DNA of 48,042 nt from a bacterium (lineage in GTDB: Bacteria; Patescibacteriota; Dojkabacteria; GCA-016699595; JBAXKR01): assembly GCA_037131125.1 (NCBI GenBank), contig JBAXRR010000004.1, positions 1 through 48,042 on the forward strand, written 5' to 3'. How positions within the stretch are numbered: the stretch's first letter is position 1; the number at the start of each line of letters is the position of its first letter. This document shows, one piece after another, positions 2,859-26,859 of the stretch. A program made the translations under genes and the position numbers. The notes beneath the pieces are model-generated. The model was not told the DNA's origin, did no database searches, and saw only the letters and a program-made list of their open reading frames with translations.

Positions 2859-3857
2859 CTATTTTATATCCTTATCCCCTCGAATCAACACATGAGTTGC
2901 TTTGTTTATTCTTTTTCTAAAGACAATATATATTCCCAATAACAGAACTATTATTCCAACTATAGATAATGTTTTTTCAAGATTAAGTGCCCAAAATGTA
3001 GTTGTAGACACCATCGTTTTTCCAGAGTATGTAAGTGCAAATTCTTCTTTATATGGACCCACTCCATCAAAGTTTATTACAGATGAGAAATCCCTCTTAG
3101 CTTCAGGTAAAACATTTCTCTCCTCAAGATTAACTGTTTTTACTTTATTACCTAATATGTCATATATATTGTAGTATCCAGTTGCTTTAATATGCACATT
3201 ACCTTGATTCTCTACAGTAGTATTTAATTTAACTTCCGGATCAGTAAATATTTTTTGAGTATCTGATGTACCAAGGATAGTAACCTTCTCCTTAACATTT
3301 CCAGGAGCTTTTAGAATTATTAACGAAGCAATTGCTTGTTTAGTTATACTCTGGCTAATATTAGGATTCACTGGAGGTTTGGAAGTAGATACTGTGATCG
3401 CACCCCAGTGACTTCCTGGCTCGACATTCATAGGAACATTAATAACATAATCAAAGGTTGCAGAAGATTTAGGTTTAACTAGTGTAAATCCTGTTTGCAT
3501 TCTTATCCACGACCTTATTGAATATTGATTAGAATCATCATGAATATCTACTTGCCCTGAATTTCCAACTGGAGTGAAGTTAGTTGGAGAAGCTTCAAAT
3601 ATAACGTCCTTGTCAGTCTGGTTAAATACTTTAACAAAACCCTTTGTAACTTTTCCAGCTTCGATATCGTATTCTTGAACAAGTGGGCTGATTGAAAAAC
3701 TAATAGTCTGATCTGCACCAGCATCTGTTTGAATATCTTGTGCTTTTGCAGTATGTAAAAATATGAAACCTATAACTGCAAATAGTGCTATAAATATAAT
3801 TGGAGATAAAATTTTTATTTTTTTGATTCTTTGTATTTTAATTCTTAAGTTATCCAT
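2859..3857 (-). CDS. WxL-interacting-protein-like (DUF916/DUF3324-like) membrane protein
   Basis: 332 aa. Signal peptide; FSISPLVQEY...IRSWI...YVINVPMNVEPGSHWGAI (DUF916-like); VENQGNVHIKATG...NVLPEAKR (DUF3324-like); C-terminal TM plus basic tail. Confidence 0.75.
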   Translation of the reverse strand: MDNLRIKIQRIKKIKILSPIIFIALFAVIGFIFLHTAKAQDIQTDAGADQTISFSISPLVQEYDIEAGKVTKGFVKVFNQTDKDVIFEASPTNFTPVGNSGQVDIHDDSNQYSIRSWIRMQTGFTLVKPKSSATFDYVINVPMNVEPGSHWGAITVSTSKPPVNPNISQSITKQAIASLIILKAPGNVKEKVTILGTSDTQKIFTDPEVKLNTTVENQGNVHIKATGYYNIYDILGNKVKTVNLEERNVLPEAKRDFSSVINFDGVGPYKEEFALTYSGKTMVSTTTFWALNLEKTLSIVGIIVLLLGIYIVFRKRINKATHVLIRGDKDIK

Positions 3858-3867
3858 TTCAAAATAC

Positions 3868-4995
3868 CTAATATGTAGCCGTAACTAAAAACACTACCGT
3901 AGTTGTGTAATTTCCTGAAGCAGTGCTACTTACAACACTCGCCTGATACCCTACCCTTGTTGTATCGTTTGCAACGGCAACAGAAGATGCTGCTATTGGA
4001 TTATTAACTTCAGATGTAGTAAACGCTGCCCATTTATTGGAACTAAATCTATTTGCAGTTCCATTTGGTAAAGTTGTACTTGATGTTGTGTACCCAAATG
4101 CTTCAGTAACTCCTGCTGCTGGAAATACAGTTGGTGCAGAATTACTTCCAGTATGATTAGTCCAATTCGCTGTTCCAGAATTCAGTGCACCAGTATATTT
4201 AACATATACAACATAACCACCATATGCATTTGTAGTTACAGTGAGATCTTGTGCGGATACCCGATTCAAACTCGTAGAAACATTACCAAGAGGAACAGAT
4301 GTTGCAGTTGATACAACATTTGTTGTGGCACCATTTACACTTTGACCAGATGCAACTCCTGCTATTGTAAAAGACAAAGCGGGTTCAATTATTACAGAGA
4401 CACCAACAGCTGTGGTATGCATATATGCAACAACACCTGAGTCAACAGGAGAAGTTACACAGTCAGTATTATTAAATGTACTAAATTGAGCATAATATAT
4501 CGTGTTAACAACGGAACCATTGGTAATAGTATTAAGTTTTACAATTCTAGAAGAAGCACTTGCAGGAGTCTCTCCAGTTGCATATGTTATCTTAACAGTT
4601 CCATTAACAGAAACATTTGTACTCCAACTTGCAGGAGTTGGCATATAGTTTGTTGTTGCATTATCTAAAGTTGCTGAAGTCGTTACCAATCCAGAAGGAA
4701 GAGATCCACCTATAACCGCATCTGAAAATACTATTTTTATACATTTAATTGTAGATAATGTTACACCGCTATATTGAGTAGTATATGAGTTGGAAGTTGA
4801 TGGCCTTGAATCTGACTGTGATAAAGATCCTGTTGTTAAAGTTGCTGCAAAAATACTAGAAGGATTTATGAAATATGAAAAAAATATGGAGAATACAAAA
4901 ACAACAATCAAAAGCATTGAAGTGATCTTGTTTTTTTTCTTTTGGAAATTAGAATTATTCACTTCATTAATTAACATATTAGTATTATTTAACAC
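3868..4995 (-). CDS. Secreted WxL-like / fimbrial-subunit-like two-domain protein
   Basis: 375 aa from GTG (alternative ATG at 4977). Signal peptide ending IFA; Ser/Thr-rich beta content; C-terminus ASGNYTTTVVFLVTATY; C-terminal domain similar to that of the giant protein. Confidence 0.7.
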   Translation of the reverse strand: MLNNTNMLINEVNNSNFQKKKNKITSMLLIVVFVFSIFFSYFINPSSIFAATLTTGSLSQSDSRPSTSNSYTTQYSGVTLSTIKCIKIVFSDAVIGGSLPSGLVTTSATLDNATTNYMPTPASWSTNVSVNGTVKITYATGETPASASSRIVKLNTITNGSVVNTIYYAQFSTFNNTDCVTSPVDSGVVAYMHTTAVGVSVIIEPALSFTIAGVASGQSVNGATTNVVSTATSVPLGNVSTSLNRVSAQDLTVTTNAYGGYVVYVKYTGALNSGTANWTNHTGSNSAPTVFPAAGVTEAFGYTTSSTTLPNGTANRFSSNKWAAFTTSEVNNPIAASSVAVANDTTRVGYQASVVSSTASGNYTTTVVFLVTATY

Positions 4996-5024
4996 CTAAT
5001 AATTTGGCATGTCAAAACACATCA

Positions 5025-5984
5025 CTATCTTTTGTAATTCTCTCCTTGTAATAGAATCTTTATCGCTCTTAAGATTCGCTTTCTACTTTTACTTCTAATA
5101 AACAAAGATAATAATAAAAGAACCCCAATTAATGTAATAACTATCCAGTAAGGAAGTATGAGAACATACCTATCTTCTGACTCAGTTAAAGTATTTGTTG
5201 CACCAAATGTAGATTGGGTTGTTAATTTTATTATTCCAATACCTGGAAGATTTGTATCAGTACCTTTAAATTCGCCTTTAAGTCCAGGAAGTATCATTGA
5301 AGGTAAAATCTCTTCAGAAGGATAATCTTTATTACTAATGATCTCTTTAACAAGTATTTTAGTAAGAGGTCTCACATGAATATTACCAGTATTAGCAATT
5401 GTCAGATCGTAGTCTAAAGATTGTGTGTTTATCCATGTTGGAACTTTTAAATCATTAAATTTAACCGATTCTTTTATATCTCCCTTAACTTGAAGCAAGA
5501 ATACTGCTGAAAGTTTTGGATAAACGGTTACAAAATCTTGTGAACTCCCCTTATTCACTACTGGTTGGAATATTACTGTCGCATAATTACCTCCAGGGGA
5601 AGCACTATCTGGCTTATTAACCTCTACCGTAATATCTCTCGAGGCTTTAGCATCAAGAGTAAAACTTTTATCCTGATCTTTTATCTTAAACCACCTACTT
5701 GCATCGTATCTATTTAATAGATTTTCTGGAATATCCTGTTTATTTTGTACACTTAAACCTTCTGCATAAACATTAATTGGGAGTTTATCATTTGTAAGGT
5801 TAACAACATTAATTGTTTGAGTCATCGTCTTGTTATCTTCCATAACTATTTCTGAAATACTTGGAGATATTCCAATAGAAGTCTTTGAGCCAACAGCACT
5901 ACTTGCACCTACCTGTGCATATGCCATGGAAGGAGATGTGAGAAAGATAATAGTTATTAATATTAATAGAGATATTTTTTTCAT
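5025..5984 (-). CDS. WxL-interacting-protein-like (DUF916/DUF3324-like) membrane protein, second paralog
   Basis: 319 aa. Signal peptide ending AYA; IGISPSISE...ASRWF...KPDSASPGGNYATVIF; IANTGNIHVRP...MILPG; C-terminal TM plus RKR tail. Confidence 0.75.
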   Translation of the reverse strand: MKKISLLILITIIFLTSPSMAYAQVGASSAVGSKTSIGISPSISEIVMEDNKTMTQTINVVNLTNDKLPINVYAEGLSVQNKQDIPENLLNRYDASRWFKIKDQDKSFTLDAKASRDITVEVNKPDSASPGGNYATVIFQPVVNKGSSQDFVTVYPKLSAVFLLQVKGDIKESVKFNDLKVPTWINTQSLDYDLTIANTGNIHVRPLTKILVKEIISNKDYPSEEILPSMILPGLKGEFKGTDTNLPGIGIIKLTTQSTFGATNTLTESEDRYVLILPYWIVITLIGVLLLLSLFIRSKSRKRILRAIKILLQGENYKR

Positions 5985-5985
5985 A

Positions 5986-8900
5986 TTAGTATTGAGGAAT
6001 CACAGTATATACAATTGATGTAACATATTGTCCTGATGTCTGCGTTGACTGAGTTTTAACCTTGTAAGTTATAGTAAACGTTTCATTAGTAATAGGTGTA
6101 CCTGAAACCGTTGCTGTATGATCAGCAACAATATCCCCAGGACCACTTGTCGCAAAAGGTGCATAACATGGAGCAGTTCCTGTTCCAAGACAAGACCCAG
6201 ACGCTGGGAACTTTCCAGATCCTTGAATAGAAGTATCTGAAGATGAATAACCAAAACCATAATTACTACCAGTCCATCCAGAAGGAGTTGCATATGAACC
6301 AAGTGAGAAATTAGGAATAGTAAGTGAACCATTAGCAACTGATCTTAAAAGGTCAGTTTCATAGGCTTTTATTAAGTATCCGTTATATGCATTTGTTGAA
6401 GTAGTTAGCACATTTGTCTTTGTGGTTTCGTAACTGTTATTTCCATTCAGGTTTCCGAAATTAATAGTGTTCGTATCTAAGGAGAAAGATAAAGATGGAG
6501 CTACTACTTGCCCATTTGAAGAAACTACACTTGAAATATTTGTTGCATTATCTGTAGCTCTAACATTAAAGAAATACATCTTTGAAGAAATTAGTGTAAG
6601 TGAACTTACAGTAACACTTGTACTTGTTGAATTTGCAGTCCAACCAACAACATCCGTTCCTCCTTGAGTAGTACCAATTGAGTAATCATAATGGTTAAGT
6701 CCAGAAATAGTTGAGTCAAACCCTGACCAATTAGCAGATATACTTGAAAGAGATCCGTTGTTAAAAGAGATATCTGAACCTATTGAAGTACCATCATAAA
6801 CAGTTCCTCCAGTTGGAACAGTTAAATCAAGTCCTACATCTCTTACACTTTCAAGATTTGCTCCATAAGAAACCCAAGCAGAATATTCTCCAAAAATATC
6901 TTTAGTTCTTGCTTGCCAATGATACTCAGTTTGATCAGTAATGCTAGTCATAGAAACAGTAGCTGCTACAGGTGATCCAGTATATGAATACCCAGTACTA
7001 CAAAGTGTTTCATAATTAGAAAAAGTTGTAGCTATTGGGACTAACTCTACACACAAATATATCGTATCTGGGTTATTTGGATCTGAAATATTTGCTGTAA
7101 AGTTGATCGAATTCTGATTTATCCAATCTCCTGTATTAATTACTACATTACTTGTAAATTTCTGAGCTAAACTTGATGGAGAGTTTGGAACTCCATTACA
7201 AACACCACCAGTAATTGTCCAATTAGTATCATTACTTATTCTCTTTGAATTTGTAGCTGTAAGAGCAACAATTGCATTTGAATCTTTTATTTCTGCATAT
7301 GTAATGCTTACAGTTCCCGTTGCATTCAATTTAGCTTGATTTCCGCTGGCGTCTGAATATAGCTTAATAAAGCTGCCGCATGCTTGACCATTTATTGTAA
7401 GCGTTCCTGTAACATTTGTTTGATTAACATTTTCCAAAAATATCTGTTTACCTCCTGTTACTGATGAGAAGTTATAGAAAGTTGTATCTGATTTATATTC
7501 TATTTGACTTATTTTTGTGTTGTCATTAAAAGTAACTGTTCCAGAGTTATGAGTAAATGTTCCAGAAAGATTAGTAAAGTGTTCAGATATTAACAATGTC
7601 GTAGACGGAGCAGTTACAGCTCCATTATTAATTAAAAAATCATTTAAAACAGTTGCAGGACTTACATCAAAAGACCATGCTCCACCTACTCCATCAAACC
7701 AAAGGTTATTAAACGCAGATGATGTTGTCATAGTTCCAGAAAGTGTCTTACCAGTAGAAGTTGAGTTCATAATGACCGTACCTGAGTTATGAGTAAATGT
7801 CCCCAGAGCGGAACTATTTGCAGTTTCTGCACCAACTGCACTTACGCCTGGCTCTGGTGATGAATATTTTCTAACTAATACTTTGCCAGTGTAGTTTAAA
7901 GTTGAGTATCCATAATTATTATATAAATCCGTAACCTCAGGAGTAGTTAATGCCGAAGAGAATACTTGGTATTGATCGAGTTGCCCTGGATAATATGCAC
8001 CCGAATAACTTTTACCTATTTGGAATATAGTATCTCCATAGTTATATAGTCCAGTTGTATGTCCAGTTGAACAGCTATTATTAACAGCTCCATCCACAAA
8101 TACATTTATATTTCCTGAGCTATCAAAACTACATCCAACATAATGCCATGCAGAAAGCATATTAACTCCACTTGAAGCACAAGAGTGCCATGCAAAATGT
8201 GCAGCAGGAACTACACTACAAGTAAGGTTTCCTGAGCCATCAAACTCTGCTACCATAGAATTTGATGAAGGCATCGAGGTAATAATTGATCCTGCACCAG
8301 TAGGTTTCGCCCAAGTCAAAAATGTTTGATACTGAATATATGCATATGTTCCAGACAAATACGCTGACGAGAAAGAACCGCCATTCCCAAACTTCCCAGC
8401 TGTAACTGTTGCACCTGCATTACATGCCTTAAGGTGATAACCATTTCCAGATGAATCAAATACAGTATTCGAAGAACAGTTGGCTGTCCATGAAGCTTCA
8501 TCCATACTATATGAACGATTCAGATTACTTACCTCTCGCACAAATGTATTAGATACTGATGAATTACTTGAAGCAGTCGGATTTCCATAATATACATAGA
8601 TAGTTTTAGTTGTCGAAGCACCAATAGATGGAACTTTAACCCATACTTTTGCATTTTGACCAGAGGCAGTATATCTTTCTACCCAATAGTTTAATTGAGT
8701 AGTTCCATCTGAATCTGTAAATCTTAAATCTGCTCCTGATTCTTGTGTATTTGAATATACCGTATCCAACATAGGAGATCTGTTATTTGTATAAAGCGAA
8801 CTTATATCCGTTGAGGATAATGCATGATCATATATTCTTGTTTCATCAATTTGACCATTAAAATACTCAGATAATGTATATGCTTTTCCAATATACATTG

Positions 8901-11900
8901 TTCCAGATGCGCTAAGCCCACCAGTATATGTATTTATGTATGACCCATTAAAGTAAAGTTTTGTTGTTGTACCAGAAACAGTTAATGCTATATTATTCCA
9001 ACCTGCACCAAAGCTTTGCCCTGTGTTTATCCACCCTATTGCAGGAGTATTAATTCCGAGCACACCTGTATTATTGTAGTCTGCGATTTCAAGTCCGTAG
9101 TTTGTCCAACTTACTATTCTTGGATATCCATTACTTCCATTTCCACTTCTTTTGACCCAAACGGAAAGTGTAATACTATTCATATCCGGAAGATTAGAAA
9201 CAGTTCCATATGCAGAGCTTCCATTTAAAACCACTGCATTACTATATTGTCCACTACTAGTCCAAGTCGCATTGTTTAAGGATACATTGGTACTATTCGT
9301 AGTATTTGCTGAATTTGCAACTGATGTTCCTGTGTTCTCATCCATCTTCCATCTTCCAATCTCTCCTTCATCTACTTTCACCTGATAGTTACTAAGTGCA
9401 TTTGAATTTGAAGAGTTATCTACTGTTATAGCTTTCCTATATTTTCCACTATTTGGACTTAATTCAGAATTCGAATAATTACCACCTACAGTTAATGTTG
9501 AAGATGGAGCAGTTACATTACCCGCAATAATAGAAAAGTCATTTATTGTAGTTGCAGCATTAGATCCAAATGACCACGCTCCACCTGTTCCATTAAATAC
9601 CAGGTTATAGAAACTTGAGGATGAAGTCATTGTTCCAGATAATGTCTTGCCAGTTGCTGTTGAATTCATCAAAACAGTCCCAGAGTTATGTGTAAAAGTA
9701 TCTGAGTTAGAATAATTTCCTCCAATAGAAAGAGTTGTAGATGGTGCAGTCACATTACCTGTAGTAACTGTTAAATCATTTGCAACAGTTGCTGGATTTG
9801 TAGCAAATGACCAAGCTCCACCTGAACCGTCAAAAATTAGATTATAGAATGAAGAAGAACCTATCATACTTCCAGATAATGTCTTACCTCCAGATGTTGC
9901 TATCATCGTCACAGTTCCAGAACTATTAGTAAACGTTCCAGAATTAGAATAGTTACCACCTATCTGTAAATTTGTAGTAGGAGCAATAACCGTACCGTTT
10001 GTAATAGTAAAATCATTCTGTATTGCTGCACCAGATGAATTAGAACTTCCAGGACCAAGTGTCCATCCTCCACCTACACCATTAAATATTAGATTATATA
10101 GCGGTCTAACATTTATCCATCCATACGTTCCTATACCAGTAATTGTTTTGCCTGTTGTCGTTGCATTCATAATAATTGTCCCGCCGTTATTTGATATAGG
10201 ACTAGCTAATGAAAAATTACCTCCAACAGTTAAAGTAGTTGAAGGAAATGTCAATGAACCTCCTTGGTGAGAGAAATCATTTACAACTGTTGCACTATTA
10301 GCCCCAAAGTCAATATTTGCAAATGCATTTGCACCATTTGAAGTAAAGTTATAGAAAGAGGAAGAACCTGTCATAGTTCCAGAAAGTGTCTTAGATCCCG
10401 AAGCAGGATTCGCAATAAAAGTACCAGAATTATGAGTGTATACTCCTGAATTTGAATAATTACCACCAACAGACAAAGTAGTAGAAGGAGCGGTAACCGT
10501 ACCAGTTGTAATCGTAAAATTGTTTTCCGCACTAGCAGGATATGCAGCAAATGTCCAAGCTCCACCTGATCCATTAAACGTTAAATTGTAGAACGCTGAA
10601 GGAGTTGTCATATTCCCAACTAAAGTCTTACCAGTTGAAGTTGAGTTCATCAAAACAGTTCCATTATTGTGAGTGAAGATACCTGAATTTGAAAATACTC
10701 CTGCAACCTCACTTCCAAGTCCACTTACAAATGGTCGATTTGGAGGAAGTAATGCTAAGATTTCAGTACTATTTAGCGCTCTGTTATACAGTCTAACAGC
10801 ATCTAAAATTACTCCATTTTGCATACCATCTGATCTTGCACCAATAATCAAAGGATCCGTAGTTTGAACTGGAGTAACTGTTTTAGAAATACTATTATCA
10901 TATGCTCCATTTATATATATAGTTGCAGTACTACCATCATAAGTTACTGCAATATGAGTCCAAGTATCTATAGGTATTGATGCATTACTAATCAGATCAT
11001 CTCCATCATTTGTTGCACGGAAAGATAACCTTCCCGAAGTACCATAATTCATTAACTGATACCATCCTGTACTATCTCCTCCACTTGGCGAAAAATTCTT
11101 AGTCATATACATACCATAGTTTGTCTCCATGGTTTTCCTAATCCACATAGACATCGTTACATTATTACCAACTTGAACTGACGAAGAGTTATTTACTGAT
11201 ACTGAATTTGATCCTCCATCGAACTGAAGTCCCGGACCTATCTTTCCACCTTGCCACTGCCCTCCTGTTGTTCCAATGAAAGTACCCGTATTACCGTGAG
11301 TCGAAGAGTCAATAAGAGTTGTACCAGTTGCCTCATCCATTCTCCAAAGTCCCATAAGATTAGCATCAGAATTTGTTGAAGTATCTTGAAATGGAATAAC
11401 AGAAGAATTTGAAGTCGCAGTTGGATCACCATAATTAATATATATATCTTTTGTTGAATTTGCACTAATTGATGGAATCAAAACTCTCACTCTTGCATTC
11501 TCTCCCGATGCTGTATATTTTTCAACCCAATAACTTAACTGACTTGTTCCATCTGAATTAACAAACCTTAAATCCTGACCACCTTCTTGAGTATGGGTAT
11601 ATATACTTCCGAGAAGTGGGGAAAGATTATTCGTATGCAAAAATGCTACCTCTGTCGGAGATAGAACTCTATCATACACTCGAACTTCATCTACTTTACC
11701 ATCCCAATATCGAGATGTGGTTGAGTAATAATCATTTCCAATTGTTGCGACCCAATCCGGAGATTCAACATCACCACCGGTATATGTTGCAGTTGCTGTT
11801 TGGGATCCATCCACGTAAAGAATTATCGCTCCATTATTGTATGTCATTGTCACAAATGTCCATGTGTTTAGAGATATTGGACTACAAGCGTAATATCCCA

Positions 11901-14900
11901 TAACATAGGCATTTCCAGTTGCTGCACAAATATTGTCTGAACCGTCTGTAGTTATTCCGAAATTGAAACCATTATATTGAGTAGTTTGCTGAACAAATAC
12001 GGTTTGGTTTCTTCCTACATCATAGGACGTTTTATATGCCCAAGCTGATATCGTAAAGCTATTTCTGTTTCCAAATTTTAAATTAGGATAGGTTACATCT
12101 ACATAATTATCATAACCAAATGTACGCGCATTATTGTAATGACCAGTCGTTACAGCTGCCCCCACTGAAGTCCCAGAAAGATTATTACCTGAAGAGTCTG
12201 CAACATTAGTACCACTAGTTTCATCCAGTCTCCAATGTGCAACCTCACCTTCATCTAATACAATTTGTGGATTGGTTAAAGTATTAGAATTTGCAGTATT
12301 ATCTATCGTCATAGACTTTCTGTAACTTGCAGTATCTTCTTGATTTGTATAGTTACCTGCAATTGATAAAGTTCCACTAGGTGCAGTAACAGTTCCTTTA
12401 ATAATCGTAAAATTACAATCAAGAGTTACATTCGCAGAAGAAAATGACCATGTTCCACCTAGTCCATTAAATGTTAAATTACAAAATTGAGAAGGCGAAG
12501 TCATTGTTCCAGATAATGTATGTCCAGTTGTTGTAGATGACATAAGCACTGTCCCAGAGTTATTAATAAATGTTGCCGAATTTGTATAATTCCCTCCAAT
12601 TGATAAAGTACCACTTGAAGCAGTTACTGTTCCATTTGTAATCGTAAAATTGTTATTTATATCCGCATTAGTCGATCCAAATGTCCATGCACCACCGACT
12701 CCATTAAAAGTCAGGTTATAGAAAGCTGAAGAACCTGTCATTGTTCCTGAGAGTGTTCGACCTCCTGAAGTAGCATTCATCAATACAGTTCCGTTATTAT
12801 GAATAAAGCTAGCACCATTATAGTAACTAGTTCCTAATGTCAAAGTTGAAGATGGAGCTGTCACACTCCCATTAAAAATATCAAAAACATCTGTCACAGT
12901 TGCAGAATTTGACCCAAAAGACCATGCTCCTCCAACTCCATCAAAGAATAAATCATAGAAAGAAGAAGAGCCTGTCATTGTTCCGGATAATGTATTTCCA
13001 GTAGTCGTAGAGTTAAAGATAATTCCACCAGAGTTGTTAGTAAATGTTCCTGAGTTAGAATAACTTCCACCTATATACATATTATCAAAAGGAGCAACAA
13101 CAGTTCCATTAGTTATGGTGAAATTATGAGTAACAGAAGTCGGATTACTTGAGAATGTCCATCCCCCACCTGATCCATTAAATTGAATATTGTAAAAATT
13201 TCCATTAGTAATTGTCTTCCCTGTTGTAGTTGCATTGAATAAAACAAGACCTGAGTTTGGAATAAATGTACCACCATTTGAATAATTACCAGTAATAGTA
13301 AGTGTAGTTGAAGGTGCTGTTACTGTTGCTGTTGAAGCTGTAATAGTAAAATTATTTATTACAGTTGCAGGATACGCCCCAAATGAAAACTCTCCACCAT
13401 CTAATCCATCAATAGTTAAGTTATAAAAAGAAGAAGAGCCTGTCATTGTCCCACTTAATGTATTGCCTATATTACCTGAACTCATATATACAGTACCTGA
13501 GTTATGTACAAATGTACCTGAATTAGAATAACTTCCTCCCAAAAACAATGTGACTAATGAGGATGGTGCAGTTACTGTGCCATTTGTTATCGTAAAATTA
13601 TTCCATACTGTTACGCCATTTGATCCAAATGACCATGCACCACCTACGCCATTAAATGTTAAGTTGGCAAAGTTATTAGTAATACCACCTGACATTAATC
13701 CGGAAAGCGTTTTACCCGTTATCGTTGCATTCATCAAAACTGTACCCGAATTGGAGATAAATGTTGCAGCATTCGAAAAGTTTCCTCCTATTGTGAGTGT
13801 TGTTGAGGGAAAGGTTATCGTCCCATTTGTTATTACCAAATCATTTACAACAGTAGCTGCATTACCTCCAAATGACCATGCTCCACCTACTCCATTAAAT
13901 GTTAGGTTATAGAAACTGGATGTTGTTGTCATTGTTCCAGAAAGTGTTTTCCCAGGATTTGGAGCATTAAATATCACAGTCCCTGAATTATGTGTGAATG
14001 TTCCTGAATTTGAATAATTATTTCCTATCGTTAAAGTTGTAGATGGAGCTGTTACTGTTCCATTTGTTATTGTGAAATTATAAACAACTAGTACATTATT
14101 CGCTCCAAATGACCATGCTCCACCTGATCCATTAAACGTTAGGTTATAGAAACTGGACGTTGTTGTCATTGTTCCTACTAACGTCTTTCCAGTTGTTGTT
14201 GAATTAAATGTTACAGTTCCAGAATTGTGGGTAAATGTTGCCGAATTGGAATAATTACCAGTTATTGTTAATGTTGTTGATGGTGCCGTTAGCGTACCTA
14301 ATGTTATTGTAAAATCATTTGCAACTGTTGCGCTATTTGCTCCAAATGACCATGCACCTCCTGAACCATTAAATGTTAAATTATAAAAAGAGCTAGTTGT
14401 TGTCATAGTTCCAGAAAGTGTTTTTCCAGTTGTCGTTGCATTAAATAATACCGTTCCTGAGTTATGTGTAAACGTTCCCGAATTGGAATAACTTCCAGTT
14501 ATAGTTAATGTTGTCGATGGTGCAGTTACTGTACCTGCTGTTATTGTAAGGTTATTTGCAACTGTTGCACTATTTGCAGCAAACGACCATGCTCCACCTG
14601 ATCCATTAAACGTTAGGTTATAGAAACTGGAAGTTGTTGTCATTGTTCCTACTAACGTCTTTCCTGTCGTTGTTGAATTAAATGTTACAGTTCCAGAATT
14701 GTGAGTAAATGTTGCCGAATTAGAATAATTACCAGTTATTGTTAATGTTGTTGACGGCGCCGTTAGCGTACCTAATGTTATTGTAAAATCATTTGCAACT
14801 GTTGCGCTATTTGCTCCAAATGACCATGCACCTCCTGAACCATTAAATGTTAAGTTATAGAAGCTGGACGTTGTTGTCATTACTCCTGCTAATGTTTTTG

Positions 14901-17900
14901 CTGTAGTTGTAGAATTAAAAAGAACCGTTCCTGAATTATGGGTAAATGTACCCGAATTGGAATAACTTCCAGTTATAGTTAATGTTGTCGATGGAGCAGT
15001 TACTGTGCCTGCTGTTATTGTAAGGTTATTTGCAACAGTTGCATTATTAGCTCCAAATGTCCAAGCTCCACCAGAGCCATTGAACGTTAGGTTATAGAAA
15101 CTGGATGTTGTTGTCATTGTTCCAGACATAGTATATCCGTTTACCGCTTGATTCCTAGCGACAGATATCTGAGCTTGTGTTAATGCATAGTCATAAACTT
15201 TTGGCTCATCTATAGTTCCATTAAAATATCTTCCTGCATAAGATGGTTCATGACCTACTTCGAAAGCATTATTTGGTGCATATGGCGTTGAGGCTGATGT
15301 TCCTGATGTCTGTGTTCCATTTACGTAAAACTTAGTAATTCCTGCCTCTCTTACCATTGCAACGTAATACCAAGTACTTGAGCTTAATGTATATCCACTA
15401 TCTATCCAAACGATTGCTCCAAGTAATCCAACAAGATTAGAACCTGATCCACCACCACCATTACCAATTCCAAAACCATATCCACCTGAATCGTTACCGT
15501 TATAGATTATCATCGGAGAAGTTTGAGGAAGAGTTGCCGTATATATCCATGCAGACATTGAATAGTTATTTGTAAGTGAATTTGCCTTATTTGTTGCATA
15601 TACCCTAGATGATGATCCATTAAAACTTAATGCTGTGTCATATTTACCTGCTACCCATGATGTATTTGCTGCAGTTCCATTTTGTCCCCCCACTACTTTT
15701 GTGTTAATTGCAGTACCTGTATTTTCATCAAAGTTCCAGTAAAGACTTGGATTTGTTATACCAACTCCATTCATATTTACTGTTCCAGAATTATGTGTAA
15801 AAGTTCCTGCGTTTGAATAATTTCCTGCAACTGAAAGTGTTGTTGATGGTGCTGTAAGTGTACCTGCAGTTATTGTGAGATTTCCTGCAACATCTGCCGA
15901 GTTTGCAGCAAATGACCAGGCTCCACCAGAGCCATTGAATGTAAGATCATAGAAAGCTGATGTTGTTGTCATTGTTCCTACTAATGTTTTACCTACAGCT
16001 GTTGAATTCATTAAAACTATTCCATAGTTATGTGTGAATGTTCCTGAATTTGAATAACTACCAGTTATAGTCAGTGTTGTTGAGGGTGCTGTTACTGTAC
16101 CTAAAGTAATGGTGAAATCGTTCGCCACAGTTGCTGGGTTTGCAGCAAATGACCATGCTCCACCTGAGCCATTGAATGTTAGGTTATAGAAAGAGCTGGT
16201 TGTTGTCATAGTCCCAGCTAAGGTATTACCTGCATCAGTTGCACTCATTGTTACAGTTCCAGAATTATGTGTAAAAGTTCCTGAATTAGAATAGTTATTT
16301 CCTATTGTTAAGGTAGTGGATGGTGCAGTTACTGTACCATTCGTGATTGTAAAATCGTTACTTACAGTTGCTGCATTTGCACCAAAAGTCCATGCTCCAC
16401 CAACGCCATTAAATGTTAGATTATAGAATGCAGATGTTGTGGTCAAAGTAGGACCTAATGTTCCACCACCACTAGTCCTGGTCATATTAACCGTGGATGT
16501 TCCCGCAGTAAATGTACCCGCATTCCCCCATGAACCTGCAACATTAATAGTATTCGCACCAGCAGATATAGTCCCGTTGTTTGCCATATGAAAAGTATTT
16601 ACAGTCCCACCAGGTGTATATGTATTTGAAGGATATATATATAGTTTTTCTTGAGTAGAAAATCCGGTATTATCGACCGTTAATGTTGTACCTGAATTAT
16701 CAAAAAATACATCTGCACTTCCCGACACACTATTATCATAAGTCCCGATATCTGTATTGGAAAGATTTGCATTATCCGTATTTCCTAACATCAGATGCTC
16801 TTTATCTAGTTCAATATTTGTAATATCTCCAGTACCATCGTACTTTGTCACCGCCGCAGCTTTATCCGCGTTAGCTGCTCCCTCAATGTATACAGTTACC
16901 ACAGCATTCGTTGCAGGTTTTGTAATTTCTCCAACTGTCCAAGTACCTGCAACTGTTGGTTGTATCTGTGGTTGTAAAACGCTTCCCACTGCAACTCTAA
17001 TAGTTCCAGTATCTCCACATGCAGTAGATTCATCAAATGCTTTACAAGTACCACTTACATTTATTGTAATAGGAGAATACTCAACAAGTAACCACATAGA
17101 AGTTACCCTAATATTGTTTGCAGTATCTACAGTTTCCCTTGCACCAACTTGCGCTCCATCAAGTGCCGATGATGTCCAGGCAGTTTCCTGTTCTGGTCTT
17201 GTGTATGATGTTAGTTGGTAATTTCTTGGAGCAGCAGAATTATTCGTAAACCATGTAGTGTTTGGAGTCATAACGTTTCCACTTTCTGAAAATGGTCCCC
17301 CTGTACCATCCTTAATTCTTAGAGCAAAAGCCATAGTTGAATTTACGTCTACAGTAGCTCTAACTCCTGCAGAAACTAAATTAATTGTTTGAGTTGCATC
17401 AATTGTATATGTACTTGAATCTTGGACGTTAGCTTCAAATACTGCATTAAGAGTTGAAGTAGTAACATAATCTGTTATATCGTTAGGAGGAACTTCATCA
17501 ACATTTGTATACGTATTTGTCCATCCAGAAGTGTCTCCAGCACCATTTGGAAGAAGGTGAACTATTTTACCTGGTCCTGGATATCCGTTTTGAGTTGTAC
17601 CAACATTTTGATTAATGGCAACATCATCATATATCCAGTCTCCTGTTGTTTGAGCTTCTGAATTCAAGTTTCCACCAAGTCCCAATTGATATACACCAGA
17701 AGATAAAGTTCTTGAAGAACTTGTTGCAAATACATTACCATCCACTTTTCCCTCTACAACCTGAGATCCTCCTGCAAGTGATGCATCCGCTTTTATTTCG
17801 ATTCTGTACCAAGTGGTTAAAGAAAGAGCAGTTGAAGCTGAGCCTATTACTCCAACGTTATCATAAAGTTTTAGAGCTCTTGTATTATCTACAGTAATAT

Positions 17901-20496
17901 ATGCAATAGCTGTACCTGAGGAATTTCTTACATCTATGATCCTATTTTCTGCACTCGGAGCAGTGTTAATATATATGTATGCTCGGAAATAGTATGGACC
18001 ATTGCTATTTGCACTAGCAAATTGATAATTAACTGCTTTTCTTGTTGTACTTGCAAGTGTGTTTATCTGAAGAGCTGCTGCTCCAGATCTTTTTGTTGCA
18101 GTAGTTATAGCTGGAGTACTATTAATTGTTGTCCATTCCATATCTGCAGTCACACTTTGAAGTTCAAAACCTGAAGAAAATACTCTTCCTCCTTCTGCTG
18201 GAACATACTCAACAGTTACCCAAACAGTACTAATACTAAATACTGGAGAACAGTCTACTGCATTTAATCTTACAGTCATTCCGTCTACTATAGATGGTGT
18301 AAGAGTTCCATAATTTGCTGCCCCAGGATCATCATATGAGAATATTGGAGGATTTTCAGGATAGGTATCATCGTTTGTGTAGTAAGTTGTGGTTACTGCC
18401 ATAGCTACTGTTGCTGAAGTATCTATTCCTCCTCCTGCATTTAAAAGAGAAATAGAATAGGAGTTACCTAGATTAGACGCAGCACCTCCTACTCTTACAT
18501 TCCCAGCAGCTAGCTTTATTATATCGTTTGCACCAATTCCAGGAGTACTGGTATTCTGCAATGTATAGTCCTCAAGTTGACCATTAGCACTACAAGTGAT
18601 AACAGTGCCAGCATCATCTGGAGTAACTTCTTTTACGTTATTAAAATCATTAGTCCATGCTGTATTTGTACCATTTCCATCTGGATGAAGATTTACAACT
18701 TTTCCACTACCTGGCCAGTTGAATTGACTTGCATATGAATCTTGGTTAATTGCAAGATCATCCCAAAAGAAGTTAGCTGTTCCGGATTGTAAAATACCAA
18801 GATCCAAAAATGTAATACCGTTAACAAGATTTTGTGTTGTAGATCTCGCGAAACTTACTCCATCAATTCTTGCTGACATTATTGTGTTTCCCGTTCCATT
18901 AGTTCCAAAATCAAATTCCATCTCCAGCCTATACCATGTATTTGTGGAAAGAGCAGAAGAATTAGATCCAACTTGAGCATTGTCTTCTTCATTATATAAC
19001 TGAAGAATTCCTCCTGTTGTCATACGAAGACACTCCTTGTATGTACCTGCATTATCCCTAAAACACATAACTTGAATGGTTCCATTTGGAAGTGTAGATA
19101 TTCTAATATATGCTCTAGCATATGTAGCAGTTGCAGTATCAGCAGCACTCGTAAATTCATACCTAATTCCACTCGTTGCAGCGCCTCCTAAAGTAGTGTT
19201 AAGTGAATACGTTCCTGATCTTACAGTACCTGAAGATATTGTTGGAGTTGTTCCAATATTTGCAGTGTATTCCATATCTGCCGTAGTACTATTGAGTTCA
19301 AACCCTGAAGTCCAAAGTCTAGTAGGATACGTATATCCAACACTATCCACTGCTATTTGCCACATTCTTTTTTCTACATACAAATCTGATGTTCCATCTG
19401 AAATAGTAATCTTCCCTAAGTTGTAAAACTCAGGACTTATTTCAGGTGCTTTATATGTATATCCAAGAGTAACTTCTTCTCCTGCTTTCATATCTACTTT
19501 GTATGAAATCTTTTGAGAAGTTTCACCTCCAGCTACTTCCGATTTATCTTGTCCATCCATTCCCTCAATATTTTTTATATTAAAAGAACTTGGAACTTGC
19601 TCAACAATAGTACCTATGAAATCATTTTTAGATTTGACTTTGATAGTTACTGGATATTCTAAAACAGGATATATTCTAGTTGCAGTTATTCTTGTAATTT
19701 GAAAGTCTAAACTATCCTTTACACTAACTACAGAATCCATACTTCGCTCGCCATTAGGAGTTATTGCTTTTAGTTGAAAAGTATAATCTCCGACTTCATC
19801 AAATTTATAACTAGCCTTGTAGTCTGGGACTAGGGTAAATTCTTTTTTATTACAATAATCTGTTACTGCAATTGTTTTATCTTTTGTAGATAAAGTCGTA
19901 ACAACTTTAGATGGAGAAGTAATTTGTAATGTCATTTGAGCTTTACAGACCATCTCACCTTTATCGTCAAGAACAGACATTTGAATATCACCAGTTTCTC
20001 CAACTAGGTAACTATCTTTGTTTGTATTTAACGCAAGAACTCCCCATTCAAAATTATTTGTATACACAACTTCGGTTCCATCTGTAATTTCAATTGTGTT
20101 AACACCTGGAGTCATCTCACTAGGAGGATTAATTAACAAAAGACCATTTGCATCTACTTTATATTTTAATTGTTTTCTATCTCCTTTGGCATTCTTGGAA
20201 TAAACAAAAAGTTTGTCTGGAACATATCTACCTAACTCAACTTTTAGCTCATCAGTCGCAGCATAATTTGTTTTTTGAAGATGGATGTCAGATTTAGTAA
20301 GGCTTCTTTGAATTTTCCCTATATTTTCACCCGGATTAGATACGACAGTATCAATAAACTGGCTCTTTAGAAGAATTGAAGTGACTATTTGAAAGATAAG
20401 AAACAAACCTAAGACTAACAGTGTGGATCTTAAAGTAAATTTAATGATTGTTTTTTTATTGAAAATCTTCCCCAATTTCTTATGAAATGGATACAA
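5986..20496 (-). CDS. Giant surface adhesin-like protein (4836 aa): N-terminal TM, duplicated lectin-like modules, ~21 79-aa repeats, 5 LamG-like domains, 2 DUF2341-like domains, FN3-like domains, WxL-like C-terminus
   Basis: Uninterrupted 14.5 kb ORF from TTG. LamG motifs (YWNFDE...FNGTIDEPKVYDYAL; HWRLDE...GKVDEVRVYDRVL); DUF2341 motifs (DLRF.. SDG..QL.YWVE...VWVKVP...IYVYYGN); FN3-like YHWQARTKD and YFFNVRATDNA; ends SGQYVTSIVYTVIPQY. Confidence 0.9.
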   Translation of the reverse strand: MYPFHKKLGKIFNKKTIIKFTLRSTLLVLGLFLIFQIVTSILLKSQFIDTVVSNPGENIGKIQRSLTKSDIHLQKTNYAATDELKVELGRYVPDKLFVYSKNAKGDRKQLKYKVDANGLLLINPPSEMTPGVNTIEITDGTEVVYTNNFEWGVLALNTNKDSYLVGETGDIQMSVLDDKGEMVCKAQMTLQITSPSKVVTTLSTKDKTIAVTDYCNKKEFTLVPDYKASYKFDEVGDYTFQLKAITPNGERSMDSVVSVKDSLDFQITRITATRIYPVLEYPVTIKVKSKNDFIGTIVEQVPSSFNIKNIEGMDGQDKSEVAGGETSQKISYKVDMKAGEEVTLGYTYKAPEISPEFYNLGKITISDGTSDLYVEKRMWQIAVDSVGYTYPTRLWTSGFELNSTTADMEYTANIGTTPTISSGTVRSGTYSLNTTLGGAATSGIRYEFTSAADTATATYARAYIRISTLPNGTIQVMCFRDNAGTYKECLRMTTGGILQLYNEEDNAQVGSNSSALSTNTWYRLEMEFDFGTNGTGNTIMSARIDGVSFARSTTQNLVNGITFLDLGILQSGTANFFWDDLAINQDSYASQFNWPGSGKVVNLHPDGNGTNTAWTNDFNNVKEVTPDDAGTVITCSANGQLEDYTLQNTSTPGIGANDIIKLAAGNVRVGGAASNLGNSYSISLLNAGGGIDTSATVAMAVTTTYYTNDDTYPENPPIFSYDDPGAANYGTLTPSIVDGMTVRLNAVDCSPVFSISTVWVTVEYVPAEGGRVFSSGFELQSVTADMEWTTINSTPAITTATKRSGAAALQINTLASTTRKAVNYQFASANSNGPYYFRAYIYINTAPSAENRIIDVRNSSGTAIAYITVDNTRALKLYDNVGVIGSASTALSLTTWYRIEIKADASLAGGSQVVEGKVDGNVFATSSSRTLSSGVYQLGLGGNLNSEAQTTGDWIYDDVAINQNVGTTQNGYPGPGKIVHLLPNGAGDTSGWTNTYTNVDEVPPNDITDYVTTSTLNAVFEANVQDSSTYTIDATQTINLVSAGVRATVDVNSTMAFALRIKDGTGGPFSESGNVMTPNTTWFTNNSAAPRNYQLTSYTRPEQETAWTSSALDGAQVGARETVDTANNIRVTSMWLLVEYSPITINVSGTCKAFDESTACGDTGTIRVAVGSVLQPQIQPTVAGTWTVGEITKPATNAVVTVYIEGAANADKAAAVTKYDGTGDITNIELDKEHLMLGNTDNANLSNTDIGTYDNSVSGSADVFFDNSGTTLTVDNTGFSTQEKLYIYPSNTYTPGGTVNTFHMANNGTISAGANTINVAGSWGNAGTFTAGTSTVNMTRTSGGGTLGPTLTTTSAFYNLTFNGVGGAWTFGANAATVSNDFTITNGTVTAPSTTLTIGNNYSNSGTFTHNSGTVTMSATDAGNTLAGTMTTTSSFYNLTFNGSGGAWSFAANPATVANDFTITLGTVTAPSTTLTITGSYSNSGTFTHNYGIVLMNSTAVGKTLVGTMTTTSAFYDLTFNGSGGAWSFAANSADVAGNLTITAGTLTAPSTTLSVAGNYSNAGTFTHNSGTVNMNGVGITNPSLYWNFDENTGTAINTKVVGGQNGTAANTSWVAGKYDTALSFNGSSSRVYATNKANSLTNNYSMSAWIYTATLPQTSPMIIYNGNDSGGYGFGIGNGGGGSGSNLVGLLGAIVWIDSGYTLSSSTWYYVAMVREAGITKFYVNGTQTSGTSASTPYAPNNAFEVGHEPSYAGRYFNGTIDEPKVYDYALTQAQISVARNQAVNGYTMSGTMTTTSSFYNLTFNGSGGAWTFGANNATVANNLTITAGTVTAPSTTLTITGSYSNSGTFTHNSGTVLFNSTTTAKTLAGVMTTTSSFYNLTFNGSGGAWSFGANSATVANDFTITLGTLTAPSTTLTITGNYSNSATFTHNSGTVTFNSTTTGKTLVGTMTTTSSFYNLTFNGSGGAWSFAANSATVANNLTITAGTVTAPSTTLTITGSYSNSGTFTHNSGTVLFNATTTGKTLSGTMTTTSSFYNLTFNGSGGAWSFGANSATVANDFTITLGTLTAPSTTLTITGNYSNSATFTHNSGTVTFNSTTTGKTLVGTMTTTSSFYNLTFNGSGGAWSFGANNVLVVYNFTITNGTVTAPSTTLTIGNNYSNSGTFTHNSGTVIFNAPNPGKTLSGTMTTTSSFYNLTFNGVGGAWSFGGNAATVVNDLVITNGTITFPSTTLTIGGNFSNAATFISNSGTVLMNATITGKTLSGLMSGGITNNFANLTFNGVGGAWSFGSNGVTVWNNFTITNGTVTAPSSLVTLFLGGSYSNSGTFVHNSGTVYMSSGNIGNTLSGTMTGSSSFYNLTIDGLDGGEFSFGAYPATVINNFTITASTATVTAPSTTLTITGNYSNGGTFIPNSGLVLFNATTTGKTITNGNFYNIQFNGSGGGWTFSSNPTSVTHNFTITNGTVVAPFDNMYIGGSYSNSGTFTNNSGGIIFNSTTTGNTLSGTMTGSSSFYDLFFDGVGGAWSFGSNSATVTDVFDIFNGSVTAPSSTLTLGTSYYNGASFIHNNGTVLMNATSGGRTLSGTMTGSSAFYNLTFNGVGGAWTFGSTNADINNNFTITNGTVTASSGTLSIGGNYTNSATFINNSGTVLMSSTTTGHTLSGTMTSPSQFCNLTFNGLGGTWSFSSANVTLDCNFTIIKGTVTAPSGTLSIAGNYTNQEDTASYRKSMTIDNTANSNTLTNPQIVLDEGEVAHWRLDETSGTNVADSSGNNLSGTSVGAAVTTGHYNNARTFGYDNYVDVTYPNLKFGNRNSFTISAWAYKTSYDVGRNQTVFVQQTTQYNGFNFGITTDGSDNICAATGNAYVMGYYACSPISLNTWTFVTMTYNNGAIILYVDGSQTATATYTGGDVESPDWVATIGNDYYSTTSRYWDGKVDEVRVYDRVLSPTEVAFLHTNNLSPLLGSIYTHTQEGGQDLRFVNSDGTSQLSYWVEKYTASGENARVRVLIPSISANSTKDIYINYGDPTATSNSSVIPFQDTSTNSDANLMGLWRMDEATGTTLIDSSTHGNTGTFIGTTGGQWQGGKIGPGLQFDGGSNSVSVNNSSSVQVGNNVTMSMWIRKTMETNYGMYMTKNFSPSGGDSTGWYQLMNYGTSGRLSFRATNDGDDLISNASIPIDTWTHIAVTYDGSTATIYINGAYDNSISKTVTPVQTTDPLIIGARSDGMQNGVILDAVRLYNRALNSTEILALLPPNRPFVSGLGSEVAGVFSNSGIFTHNNGTVLMNSTSTGKTLVGNMTTPSAFYNLTFNGSGGAWTFAAYPASAENNFTITTGTVTAPSTTLSVGGNYSNSGVYTHNSGTFIANPASGSKTLSGTMTGSSSFYNFTSNGANAFANIDFGANSATVVNDFSHQGGSLTFPSTTLTVGGNFSLASPISNNGGTIIMNATTTGKTITGIGTYGWINVRPLYNLIFNGVGGGWTLGPGSSNSSGAAIQNDFTITNGTVIAPTTNLQIGGNYSNSGTFTNSSGTVTMIATSGGKTLSGSMIGSSSFYNLIFDGSGGAWSFATNPATVANDLTVTTGNVTAPSTTLSIGGNYSNSDTFTHNSGTVLMNSTATGKTLSGTMTSSSSFYNLVFNGTGGAWSFGSNAATTINDFSIIAGNVTAPSSTLTVGGNYSNSELSPNSGKYRKAITVDNSSNSNALSNYQVKVDEGEIGRWKMDENTGTSVANSANTTNSTNVSLNNATWTSSGQYSNAVVLNGSSAYGTVSNLPDMNSITLSVWVKRSGNGSNGYPRIVSWTNYGLEIADYNNTGVLGINTPAIGWINTGQSFGAGWNNIALTVSGTTTKLYFNGSYINTYTGGLSASGTMYIGKAYTLSEYFNGQIDETRIYDHALSSTDISSLYTNNRSPMLDTVYSNTQESGADLRFTDSDGTTQLNYWVERYTASGQNAKVWVKVPSIGASTTKTIYVYYGNPTASSNSSVSNTFVREVSNLNRSYSMDEASWTANCSSNTVFDSSGNGYHLKACNAGATVTAGKFGNGGSFSSAYLSGTYAYIQYQTFLTWAKPTGAGSIITSMPSSNSMVAEFDGSGNLTCSVVPAAHFAWHSCASSGVNMLSAWHYVGCSFDSSGNINVFVDGAVNNSCSTGHTTGLYNYGDTIFQIGKSYSGAYYPGQLDQYQVFSSALTTPEVTDLYNNYGYSTLNYTGKVLVRKYSSPEPGVSAVGAETANSSALGTFTHNSGTVIMNSTSTGKTLSGTMTTSSAFNNLWFDGVGGAWSFDVSPATVLNDFLINNGAVTAPSTTLLISEHFTNLSGTFTHNSGTVTFNDNTKISQIEYKSDTTFYNFSSVTGGKQIFLENVNQTNVTGTLTINGQACGSFIKLYSDASGNQAKLNATGTVSITYAEIKDSNAIVALTATNSKRISNDTNWTITGGVCNGVPNSPSSLAQKFTSNVVINTGDWINQNSINFTANISDPNNPDTIYLCVELVPIATTFSNYETLCSTGYSYTGSPVAATVSMTSITDQTEYHWQARTKDIFGEYSAWVSYGANLESVRDVGLDLTVPTGGTVYDGTSIGSDISFNNGSLSSISANWSGFDSTISGLNHYDYSIGTTQGGTDVVGWTANSTSTSVTVSSLTLISSKMYFFNVRATDNATNISSVVSSNGQVVAPSLSFSLDTNTINFGNLNGNNSYETTKTNVLTTSTNAYNGYLIKAYETDLLRSVANGSLTIPNFSLGSYATPSGWTGSNYGFGYSSSDTSIQGSGKFPASGSCLGTGTAPCYAPFATSGPGDIVADHTATVSGTPITNETFTITYKVKTQSTQTSGQYVTSIVYTVIPQY
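7560..16450 (-). repeat. Intragenic tandem repeat, 237-bp (79-aa) unit, about 21 copies, interrupted three times by inserted domains
   Basis: Unit GTMTTTSSFYNLTFNGSGGAWSFGANSATVANDFTITLGTLTAPSTTLTITGNYSNSATFTHNSGTVTFNSTTTGKTLV. Met codons fall at 14167, 14404, 14641 and 14878 (237-bp spacing). Boundaries are approximate. Confidence 0.9.
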
Positions 20497-20510
20497 ATAT
20501 ATATACTAAC

Positions 20511-20539
20511 ATTATGTAAATAATCGAGTATGATGTCAA
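20511..20539 (-). promoter_or_regulatory. Sigma70-type promoter TTGACA-N17-CATAAT for the giant adhesin / WxL-like operon
   Basis: Minus strand TTGACA (20539-20534), 17-nt spacer, CATAAT (20516-20511), 14 nt before the TTG start. Confidence 0.65.
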
Positions 20540-20593
20540 TAAATATGGGATTATTGGGACTTTATCTATGCAGAAAAAAGAATTAATTTCAAA

Positions 20594-21265: not shown

Positions 21266-21310
21266 TTAAGTAGATTCAAATTTTATTCTACTTTGTATTA
21301 TTATTTATAT

Positions 21311-21886: not shown

Positions 21887-21911
21887 TTGGCAGTGTTAAT
21901 AATTAATAAAT

Positions 21912-24503: not shown

Positions 24504-24538
24504 TTAAAATATATTAATTATTTAACTATATAAATATT

Positions 24539-25213: not shown

Positions 25214-25253
25214 TTGGCAGAGTAATTAAAAATAATATATTTTGAAAATCATT

Positions 25254-26813: not shown

Positions 26814-26859
26814 AAATATGAACGTACAAATAAAAATATTTTTATTCTTTTTTATACTA

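Follow-up and report, generated by a model that had tools for sequence, protein, structure and literature searches.

A four-gene operon of a Dojkabacteria genome that probably encodes a donor-strand pilus of the Pam type, usher-less and tipped by a giant modular adhesin

A 48,042-nt stretch of DNA from an ultra-small member of the Dojkabacteria (Patescibacteriota; Candidate Phyla Radiation, CPR), hereafter the window (GenBank GCA_037131125.1, contig JBAXRR010000004.1), carries four co-directional open reading frames (ORFs), all on the minus strand, that encode in order a giant protein of 4836 amino acids (aa), a first chaperone-like partner (chaperone A), a 375-aa pilin and a second partner (chaperone B). 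It is proposed that this operon probably specifies a divergent Pam-type pilus of CPR bacteria, assisted by chaperones, assembled without an usher by donor-strand exchange and crowned by a giant modular tip adhesin. The proposal is carried by homologies, by domain architectures, by conserved synteny and by one model of a protein complex that cleared its controls. The pilus type itself has been known since 2026 and the operon is a variant of it, not an unknown system; what is new with respect to the published Pam pili is the giant adhesin in place of PamT, together with a chaperone lineage dedicated to the giant.

Pam pili have been reported from Candidatus Mycosynbacter amalyticus and other CPR bacteria and, within the searchable literature, are described by one preprint only (Troman et al., bioRxiv 2026; PMC13278184). 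In the portions of that preprint drawn on here, filaments of PamA and PamB were seen by cryo-electron microscopy (cryo-EM), the linker of one Pam subunit is received by the C-terminal domain of its neighbour, the chaperones PamC and PamD are PapD/FimC-like with a C-terminal membrane helix, no usher is involved, and successive stretches of one filament are modelled as being made of different pilins. For the present operon it is suggested that all four proteins would be exported through Sec and that the two-domain partners would stay in the membrane via their C-terminal helix, each lending a strand to an incomplete C-terminal domain, chaperone A to that of the giant and chaperone B to that of the 375-aa pilin. 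In the giant's C-terminal domain the pilin linker would take the place of the chaperone strand; the giant, without a spare strand to donate, would end at the distal tip, and more pilins would join at the base by the same exchange. A lectin-like payload of ~0.5 MDa would in this way be held off the cell, its presumed task being to bind to a host or to some surface. The pilin would be expected to polymerise by homology with PamA and PamB; each chaperone would bind its client and the last chaperone-bound subunit would anchor the base.

Shared pilin domain and modelled donor strand

The giant and the 375-aa protein end in related domains, as a first-pass annotation of this DNA had claimed from four pairs of short motifs, all of which were located in the translations. 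In a BLASTP alignment, 4697-4836 of the giant and 251-375 of the small protein are 28% identical (40/144; E 2e-4), and a hidden Markov model (HMM) made from the last 200 aa of 21 giant homologues matched residues 215-375 of the small protein (E 8e-10). Both C-termini also match a common NCBIfam model, NF058581 (CPR_Pam_pilin_C), which derives from the Pam pili of Troman et al. (PMC13278184). The C-terminus of the giant scored 31.4 bits in a search of the genome (E 1.2e-7; profile positions 2-148 of 148), and the 375-aa protein scored 24.2 bits as a protein (E 3e-5) and 27.2 bits over its full length in the six-frame search of the genome (E 2.5e-6). Seven reading frames were matched over the whole profile in that six-frame search, namely the giant, the small protein and five genes of another contig, C9; an eighth match, at E 0.41, is noise. 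Across the wider family 20 of 24 aligned domains match the model, the best at E 1.3e-35. These matches, together with the complex model described below, support the earlier claim that the shared domain is a pilin-type, strand-accepting domain. A Pfam search of the window proteins gave no family for it, and its profile matched nothing at E<=10 among PDB sequences.

The AF2 monomer model of the 375-aa protein (mean pLDDT 88.2, from a 35-sequence alignment) matches the plan of a Pam pilin, which runs from a signal through an N-terminal beta-sandwich and a single linker strand to a truncated, Ig-like C-terminal domain. Here the export signal covers residues ~1-50 as a long N-terminal helix and is followed by a beta-sandwich at 51-193 (strands within 55-193), the linker and a C-terminal beta domain at 207-375. 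Residues 197-202 of the linker have a pLDDT below 50 in the monomer, and Cys85 and Cys179 of the N-terminal beta-sandwich are invariant across 35 homologues. Among 8000 scored candidates 358 relatives of the pilin were found at E<=1e-3, and the three that carry a source name are from Patescibacteria, WWE3 and Dojkabacteria. The pilin profile found only 1exg among PDB sequences (E 0.19), and the PDB entries of PamA and PamB (25PZ and 25QA) turned up in none of the searches of this analysis. Foldseek on the whole pilin model returned generic two-Ig adhesins (TM ~0.2), a result that is uninformative because two flexibly joined domains were searched together.

The order of the subunits was approached by modelling the last 290 aa of the giant (19-row alignment A4) with pilin residues 45-375 (alignment A1) in three runs and three controls. 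The complex scored 0.88, 0.86 and 0.86 and all three controls scored 0.00; of 157 solved complexes 116 attain the score mark of this test, as do 2 of 215 mismatched pairs. At least 93% of contacts are common to the runs and the partner pLDDT is at least 91. In the modelled complex the pilin linker fills a groove that is flanked by the first and the last strand of the domain of the giant; pilin residues 197-203 run antiparallel to residues 4821-4829 of the giant, its last strand, and parallel to residues 4678-4683, at expected errors of 0.3-0.5 A, and the giant residues that hold the linker are 4666-4685 and 4817-4836. Sleutel et al. report this geometry for complementation between WxL subunits (10.64898/2026.10.17.759780). 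Modelling of the subunit pair, which the first-pass annotation had put forward as a check, predicts the pilin linker within the C-terminal domain of the giant (0.86 against 0.00). In the giant only ~6 residues separate the FN3-like domain from the strand that opens the C-terminal domain, the pilin having ~11-13 ahead of its own, and the short junction motif is present in 89 of 95 giant-type proteins. Given that the giant appears able to accept but not to donate a strand, it would have to occupy the distal end, and the model thus points to a place for the giant at the fibre tip. Of the earlier picture, a fibre of 375-aa subunits carrying a ~0.5 MDa adhesin, the insertion of a strand into the giant is now modelled and the polymerisation of the subunits is the part taken over from the Pam homologues.

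The giant itself opens with a hydrophobic export segment (residues ~20-48) and closes with an FN3-like domain followed by the Pam-type C-terminal domain. Its payload comprises, by Pfam, five Laminin_G_3 stretches (E 5.8e-94) and two DUF2341 stretches (E 7.6e-37), and a 79-aa repeat occurs in at least 19 copies by a strict motif, at residues ~1357-2750, 3300-3700 and 4260. In part, these repeats fit the TafC model of NCBIfam, with 140 bits where the cut-off is 410; TafC is described as a subunit of the Tat-dependent Tat-fimbriae of haloarchaea (PMC11821415). Twenty large relatives of 2683-4196 aa are 54-85% identical over the last 277 residues, and their precomputed domains include Peptidase_M23 in 11 and Laminin_G_3 in 7 of the 20. 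In two homologue searches that together gave 168 proteins, the giant-type domain is flush with the C-terminus in 95; these range from 377 to 4806 aa (median 1915), with 83 of at least 1000 aa, 12 of at least 3000 and 2 of at least 4000. The shorter ones are probably fragments, and the giant of the window exceeds all 95 in length. Only C-terminus-flush domains were counted, and the 4943 proteins that a search of representatives with the A4 profile found at E<=1e-3 are not a measure of family size because that profile includes the FN3-like domain.

Chaperones and conserved gene order

The two partner proteins are paralogous along their whole length, with 26% identity in an alignment of 323 columns (E 4e-15), and both carry a C-terminal hydrophobic segment. 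Chaperone A has a signal peptide, two beta-sandwich domains, a C-terminal membrane helix at ~271-300 and a candidate donor strand at ~157-167. The AF2 model of chaperone B (pLDDT 80.5, from 19 sequences) consists of a signal peptide, a first domain at 54-159, a poorly placed loop, a second domain at 192-291, a membrane helix at 293-312 and a short basic tail; its strand 175-184, conserved and with alternating hydrophobic residues, is the candidate donor strand. When chaperone B was compared with the PDB by Foldseek, the top matches were the WxL-interacting protein (WxLIP) of Enterococcus faecium (9i1y_A, E 1.2e-14) and the same type of protein bound to a long WxL protein (9i25_C, E 5.6e-14), followed by the chaperone-usher chaperones CfaA, CsuC, DraB, FimC, Caf1M and SafB (E 1e-10 to 1e-8, TM by target 0.50-0.58); RbmA is also in the list, at a lower TM. 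Sequence comparison leads to the same family, as the profile of the partner family, run against 177,635 PDB sequences, found EfmWxLIP1 as its best match (E 0.0017; next match 0.26). The Pfam family PF06030 (DUF916, now WxLIP_PGBD) matches 15 of 19 members of the partner family, the best at E 3e-10, with the window copies below the cut-off (chaperone B at E 0.018 and 0.006, chaperone A at E 0.10), and in the whole genome it matches three places, which are exactly the three chaperone-like genes. PF11797 (DUF3324) gave no match, the second domain being present in the model of chaperone B but unrecognised by sequence, and an NCBIfam search of the chaperone family gave no relevant model. The partners are thus supported as relatives of DUF916/WxLIP that also resemble the chaperones of chaperone-usher pili, and the earlier description of them as DUF916/DUF3324-like holds for the DUF916 half, by PF06030 and the WxLIP top match, and finds no match for DUF3324. 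A role for either partner as a PamR-like terminator was considered and set aside, neither having an evident extra N-terminal donor strand.

Synteny across CPR bacteria was likewise among the checks proposed in the first-pass annotation. A scan of species-representative genomes, in which ORFs were called and classified with HMMs built for this analysis, gave 41 loci, and in 18 of them a large protein with the giant-type domain is followed by a chaperone, one or two pilins and a chaperone. These 18 include L040, with 2.6 kb between the first two genes, five loci in which the large gene runs off the locus (L012, L015, L019, L027 and L035), and L017, whose fused frame is described below. Another operon type, found in 7 of the 41, has two or three pilins, a chaperone, a domain protein of 441-515 aa and usually a second chaperone-like gene, and lies nearer the published Pam operon. 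The remaining 16 loci are partial or otherwise arranged; L020, for instance, has no giant in the 10 kb upstream. Record titles name mostly CPR groups, and the five that name Gammaproteobacteria, Pseudomonadales or Nanoarchaeia (L017, L021, L024, L027 and L029) are probably mislabelled bins. Two side observations concern these loci. The 441-515-aa protein, seen in L025, L030, L037, L041, L042, L043 and L046, carries its pilin-type domain at the C-terminus, preceded by sequence that resembles the end of a Laminin-G-like module, which suggests a small lectin-tipped version of the same design. At L017:9131-11059 the chaperone next to the giant gene and the pilin form one frame of ~640 aa, a length also seen in P0101 (642 aa) and P0107 (646 aa); this may be a true fusion or an artefact of assembly or reading frame.

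A maximum-likelihood tree was made of 43 chaperones, comprising 17 giant-adjacent, 17 pilin-adjacent and 9 other, hand-picked sequences, with L017 and L033 left out. All 17 giant-adjacent chaperones, chaperone A among them, lie on one side of a branch with an SH-aLRT of 99, and the two chaperones of the window group with the same four loci in both halves of the tree. This pattern, read from sequence, supports an old duplication with one chaperone lineage apparently tied to the giant. Two separate conserved clades, one of them always giant-adjacent, fit the earlier idea of one dedicated chaperone per subunit, in which the binding of each client is presumed.

Relation to known pili and competing readings

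The operon shares with the Pam pili a CPR host, the plan and the paired cysteines of the pilin, the lack of an usher, two two-domain chaperone paralogues with a C-terminal membrane helix and a C-terminal domain that matches the NCBIfam model of the Pam family. It departs from them in its sub-cut-off matches, in having one shaft pilin gene and no recognised PamT, PamR or PamE, in its order of giant, chaperone, pilin and chaperone compared with the published operon, and in the tip place, which would be taken by a 4836-aa multidomain protein with a pilin domain at its C-terminus. In the main text of the Pam preprint the word "giant" does not occur and "adhesin" occurs in the reference list only, and the "tail fibre-like protein" in its neighbourhood network could be a member of this giant family (PMC13278184).

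A second system for comparison is that of the WxL/Elr pili of Enterococcus faecalis and other Bacillota (Sleutel et al.; 10.64898/2026.10.17.759780). According to the available text of that preprint, WxL clusters build donor-strand-exchange pili in which the DUF916/DUF3324 protein is the membrane-anchored chaperone, and their tip adhesins combine a variable N-terminal payload with a C-terminal WxL domain that is invariant and has no donor strand. The present operon resembles this system in its membrane-anchored DUF916-type chaperone, the best structural and sequence match of the partners, in a donor strand that, as modelled here, runs antiparallel to the last strand of the acceptor, and in a modular tip adhesin with a C-terminal attachment domain free of a donor strand. 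Unlike WxL/Elr pili, it is found in a CPR host, has no PF13731 or PF11797 match and no LPxTG subunit, and its pilin has an extra N-terminal domain ahead of the donor strand. The WxL model PF13731 matched 0 of the 24 C-terminal domains at E<=10 and nothing in the genome; the sole pointer to the shared domain being a WxL domain is a weak lead from the ESM-Atlas, where two of the three nearest named clusters (scores 0.87 and 0.86, to be taken as leads only) carry PF13731 in 22% and 44% of their members. No WxL chain appears in the VIA-align lists, which are uninformative either way because they are filled by matches to the N-terminal domain. Since the WxL and DUF3324 models are both without matches, the operon is not a WxL cluster in the literal sense. 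The two alternatives of the earlier label, WxL-like and usher-less fimbrial, amount to one type of pilus according to the two 2026 preprints.

Chaperone-usher pili (CFA/I with CfaA, Csu with CsuC, type 1 with FimC, and Caf1M) have in common with the operon the two-domain chaperone fold, the donor-strand logic and a tip adhesin with a C-terminal pilin domain, and differ from it in that here the chaperone is tethered to the cytoplasmic membrane, there is no outer membrane and neither usher nor PapD_N is matched. In the genome the usher family PF00577 gave a single sub-cut-off match, at 13.5 bits (E 0.008) and on a different contig, and PapD_N (PF00345) gave none, in agreement with the earlier claim that no usher is present. 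No LPxTG subunit occurs among the operon genes and three sortase genes lie on other contigs; at the fibre's base, on the simplest reading, the last subunit would remain bound to its membrane-anchored chaperone. The pond-water fibrils TLP-1a and TLP-1b (CryoSeek, PMC11494351) show no sequence match to the operon; TLP-1 is described there as a single domain whose donor is the n+4 protomer, forming an 8-nm tubule, with its nearest predicted model in Flavobacteriales.

Several points weigh against a Pam-type pilus built by this operon. NF058581 scores 24-43 bits against a curated cut-off of 55, which no match in the genome reaches, and judged by sequence the pilin domains of the window are divergent Pam relatives that fail NCBI's membership rule. 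The PamT model NF058579 has 0 matches at E<=1 in the genome, which is ~95% complete, and no PamR-like or PamE-like gene was recognised among the four genes of the operon, no profile search having been made for either. The chaperone tree is a quick search in which several rows of the clade of chaperone A have long branches. The complex modelling covers the giant-pilin pair only and used alignments of our own, so that its calibration is only rough; moreover, given the many solved donor-strand complexes, the pass may reflect likeness to these and not binding. Finally, there is one shaft pilin gene here and there are five at a second Pam-like locus of the same genome (contig C9, L009:8926-15541), so that a long fibre may be built elsewhere. 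That locus consists of five tandem pilin paralogues of 348-368 aa and then a 379-aa chaperone-like protein with a C-terminal membrane helix; its pilins match NF058581 at 34.7-43 bits (E 3e-11 to 1e-8), and its Pam and DUF916 matches outscore those of the window.

The stronger matches at this second locus, with its five pilins and one chaperone, raise the possibility that the 375-aa protein is a single-copy adaptor or short stalk, which would link the giant to the membrane or to a fibre of the C9 pilins, the operon alone building no shaft. Such a division of labour would suit the model of Troman et al., in which different pilins form successive stretches of a filament (PMC13278184). This scenario is rather unlikely, given that the pilin, with a donor linker as well as an acceptor domain, can in principle polymerise, and that the four-gene order is conserved by itself in 18 of the 41 loci. 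It is also conceivable, though improbable, that no polymerisation takes place and that the membrane-anchored partners hold the giant and the small protein at the envelope as a non-filamentous surface complex. The partners are akin to WxLIP, whose role was initially proposed to be the binding and stabilisation of WxL proteins at the wall (Hassan et al. 2023; PMC10599100); each client gene has a partner gene of its own after it, and the operon has no terminator or anchor subunit. However, the conserved linker of the pilin is inserted by the model into the domain of another subunit, the homologous PamA and PamB are cryo-EM filaments (PMC13278184), WxL proteins are themselves now reported to polymerise by donor-strand exchange (10.64898/2026.10.17.759780), and the WxL model is without a match here.

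An arrangement in which the giant is an internal or basal part of the fibre, or occurs repeatedly along a polyadhesive fibre with no single distal cap, is highly improbable. Sleutel et al. do model one WxL adhesin that both donates and accepts a strand inside a fibre (10.64898/2026.10.17.759780), but that exception has an N-terminal attachment domain and a donor strand, whereas the giant-type domain is flush with the C-terminus in its 95 counted members, 89 of them with the short linker, and in the complex model the donor is the pilin and the acceptor is the giant. A donor-strand pilus with the giant as its distal tip is consequently preferred.

Each of the two 2026 preprints presents its own pilus system as confined to its own phylum: the available text of Sleutel et al. 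restricts the system to Bacillota and leaves CPR bacteria and Pam unmentioned (10.64898/2026.10.17.759780), and that of Troman et al. has no mention of WxL, DUF916 or DUF3324 (PMC13278184). The kinship of the present chaperones with the enterococcal WxLIP links these separately published systems. As a tentative extension, which is quite possible without being the favoured outcome, Pam pili of CPR bacteria and WxL/Elr pili of Bacillota could be two branches of one ancient usher-less donor-strand family of single-membrane bacteria, with homologous chaperones, a Pam C-terminal domain that would be a tryptophan-less WxL type, and interchangeable payloads on an invariant C-terminal dock; giant tips would then serve CPR episymbionts as organs of host recognition or attack.

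A large part of bacterial diversity consists of CPR bacteria, whose usual way of life is attachment to other cells. Their recognition of a host is listed among the unresolved points of the Pam preprint (PMC13278184). With the operon type in at least 18 species-level genomes and at least 95 giant-type proteins, there are concrete candidates for this step, the candidate recognition module being a modular tip protein that is docked to a simple fibre and served by a chaperone of its own. The payload is not constant, being lectin-like here and an M23 peptidoglycan hydrolase in relatives, and this variation suggests that hosts or modes of attack differ. For organisms that cannot be cultured, the pilin and its chaperone also provide a small test system amenable to expression.

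Gene layout and neighbouring genes

The genome comprises 1.15 Mb in 64 contigs, and the window lies on contig C4; it is AT-rich, with a GC content of 0.29-0.39. The features of the operon are collected in Table 1. The ORF coordinates agree with the earlier description of four tightly spaced genes, the intergenic gaps being 1, 29 and 10 nt. The promoter-like site sits in the 97-nt gap 5' of the giant gene and is the top sigma-70-like match within 20300-27200, a region that holds 37 such sites against 33.4 expected from shuffles; the promoter is a consensus match only. Genes lie 5' of the giant gene on the same strand, so that read-through from them is possible. The single promoter of the first-pass annotation is on this evidence plausible, being the best consensus site of a region in which the number of sites is at shuffle level.

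Table 1. Operon features and their positions in the 48,042-nt window
Feature	Position	Strand	Basis
Promoter-like site, TTGACA-17-CATAAT	20511..20539	-	11/12 consensus positions
Giant protein, 4836 aa; proposed tip adhesin	5986..20496	-	ORF
C-terminal domain of giant, residues ~4666-4836; putative strand-accepting pilin domain	5989..6501	-	NF058581 match
Chaperone A, 319 aa; paralogue of chaperone B	5025..5984	-	ORF
Shaft pilin, 375 aa	3868..4995	-	ORF; AF2 model, NF058581 match
Pilin linker, residues 194-206; proposed donor strand	4378..4416	-	Monomer and complex models
Chaperone B, 332 aa	2859..3857	-	ORF; AF2 model, Foldseek, PF06030

Directly 5' of the giant gene (20594-26813, minus strand) lie two gene pairs, each of a dockerin-bearing secreted protein and then a cohesin-like protein of ~223 aa. 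The dockerin proteins are of 863 aa, with an FGE-sulfatase-like domain, and of 519 aa, with a beta-helix. The C-termini of both cohesin-like proteins resemble a sortase signal, with an LPSTA-like motif, then a hydrophobic stretch and then a basic tail. Fastening of the pilus by cohesin and dockerin was considered and rejected, the dockerins being on these two enzyme-like proteins and on no part of the pilus. Divergent from this surface-protein cluster, at 27003-31355 on the plus strand, is a gene for a 1450-aa secreted protein; a lytic transglycosylase domain, faintly matched near the C-terminus (E 0.051), is the sole family assignment. Of the sequencing runs tied to the locus none listed is of RNA, and those of DNA are lake or freshwater metagenomes.

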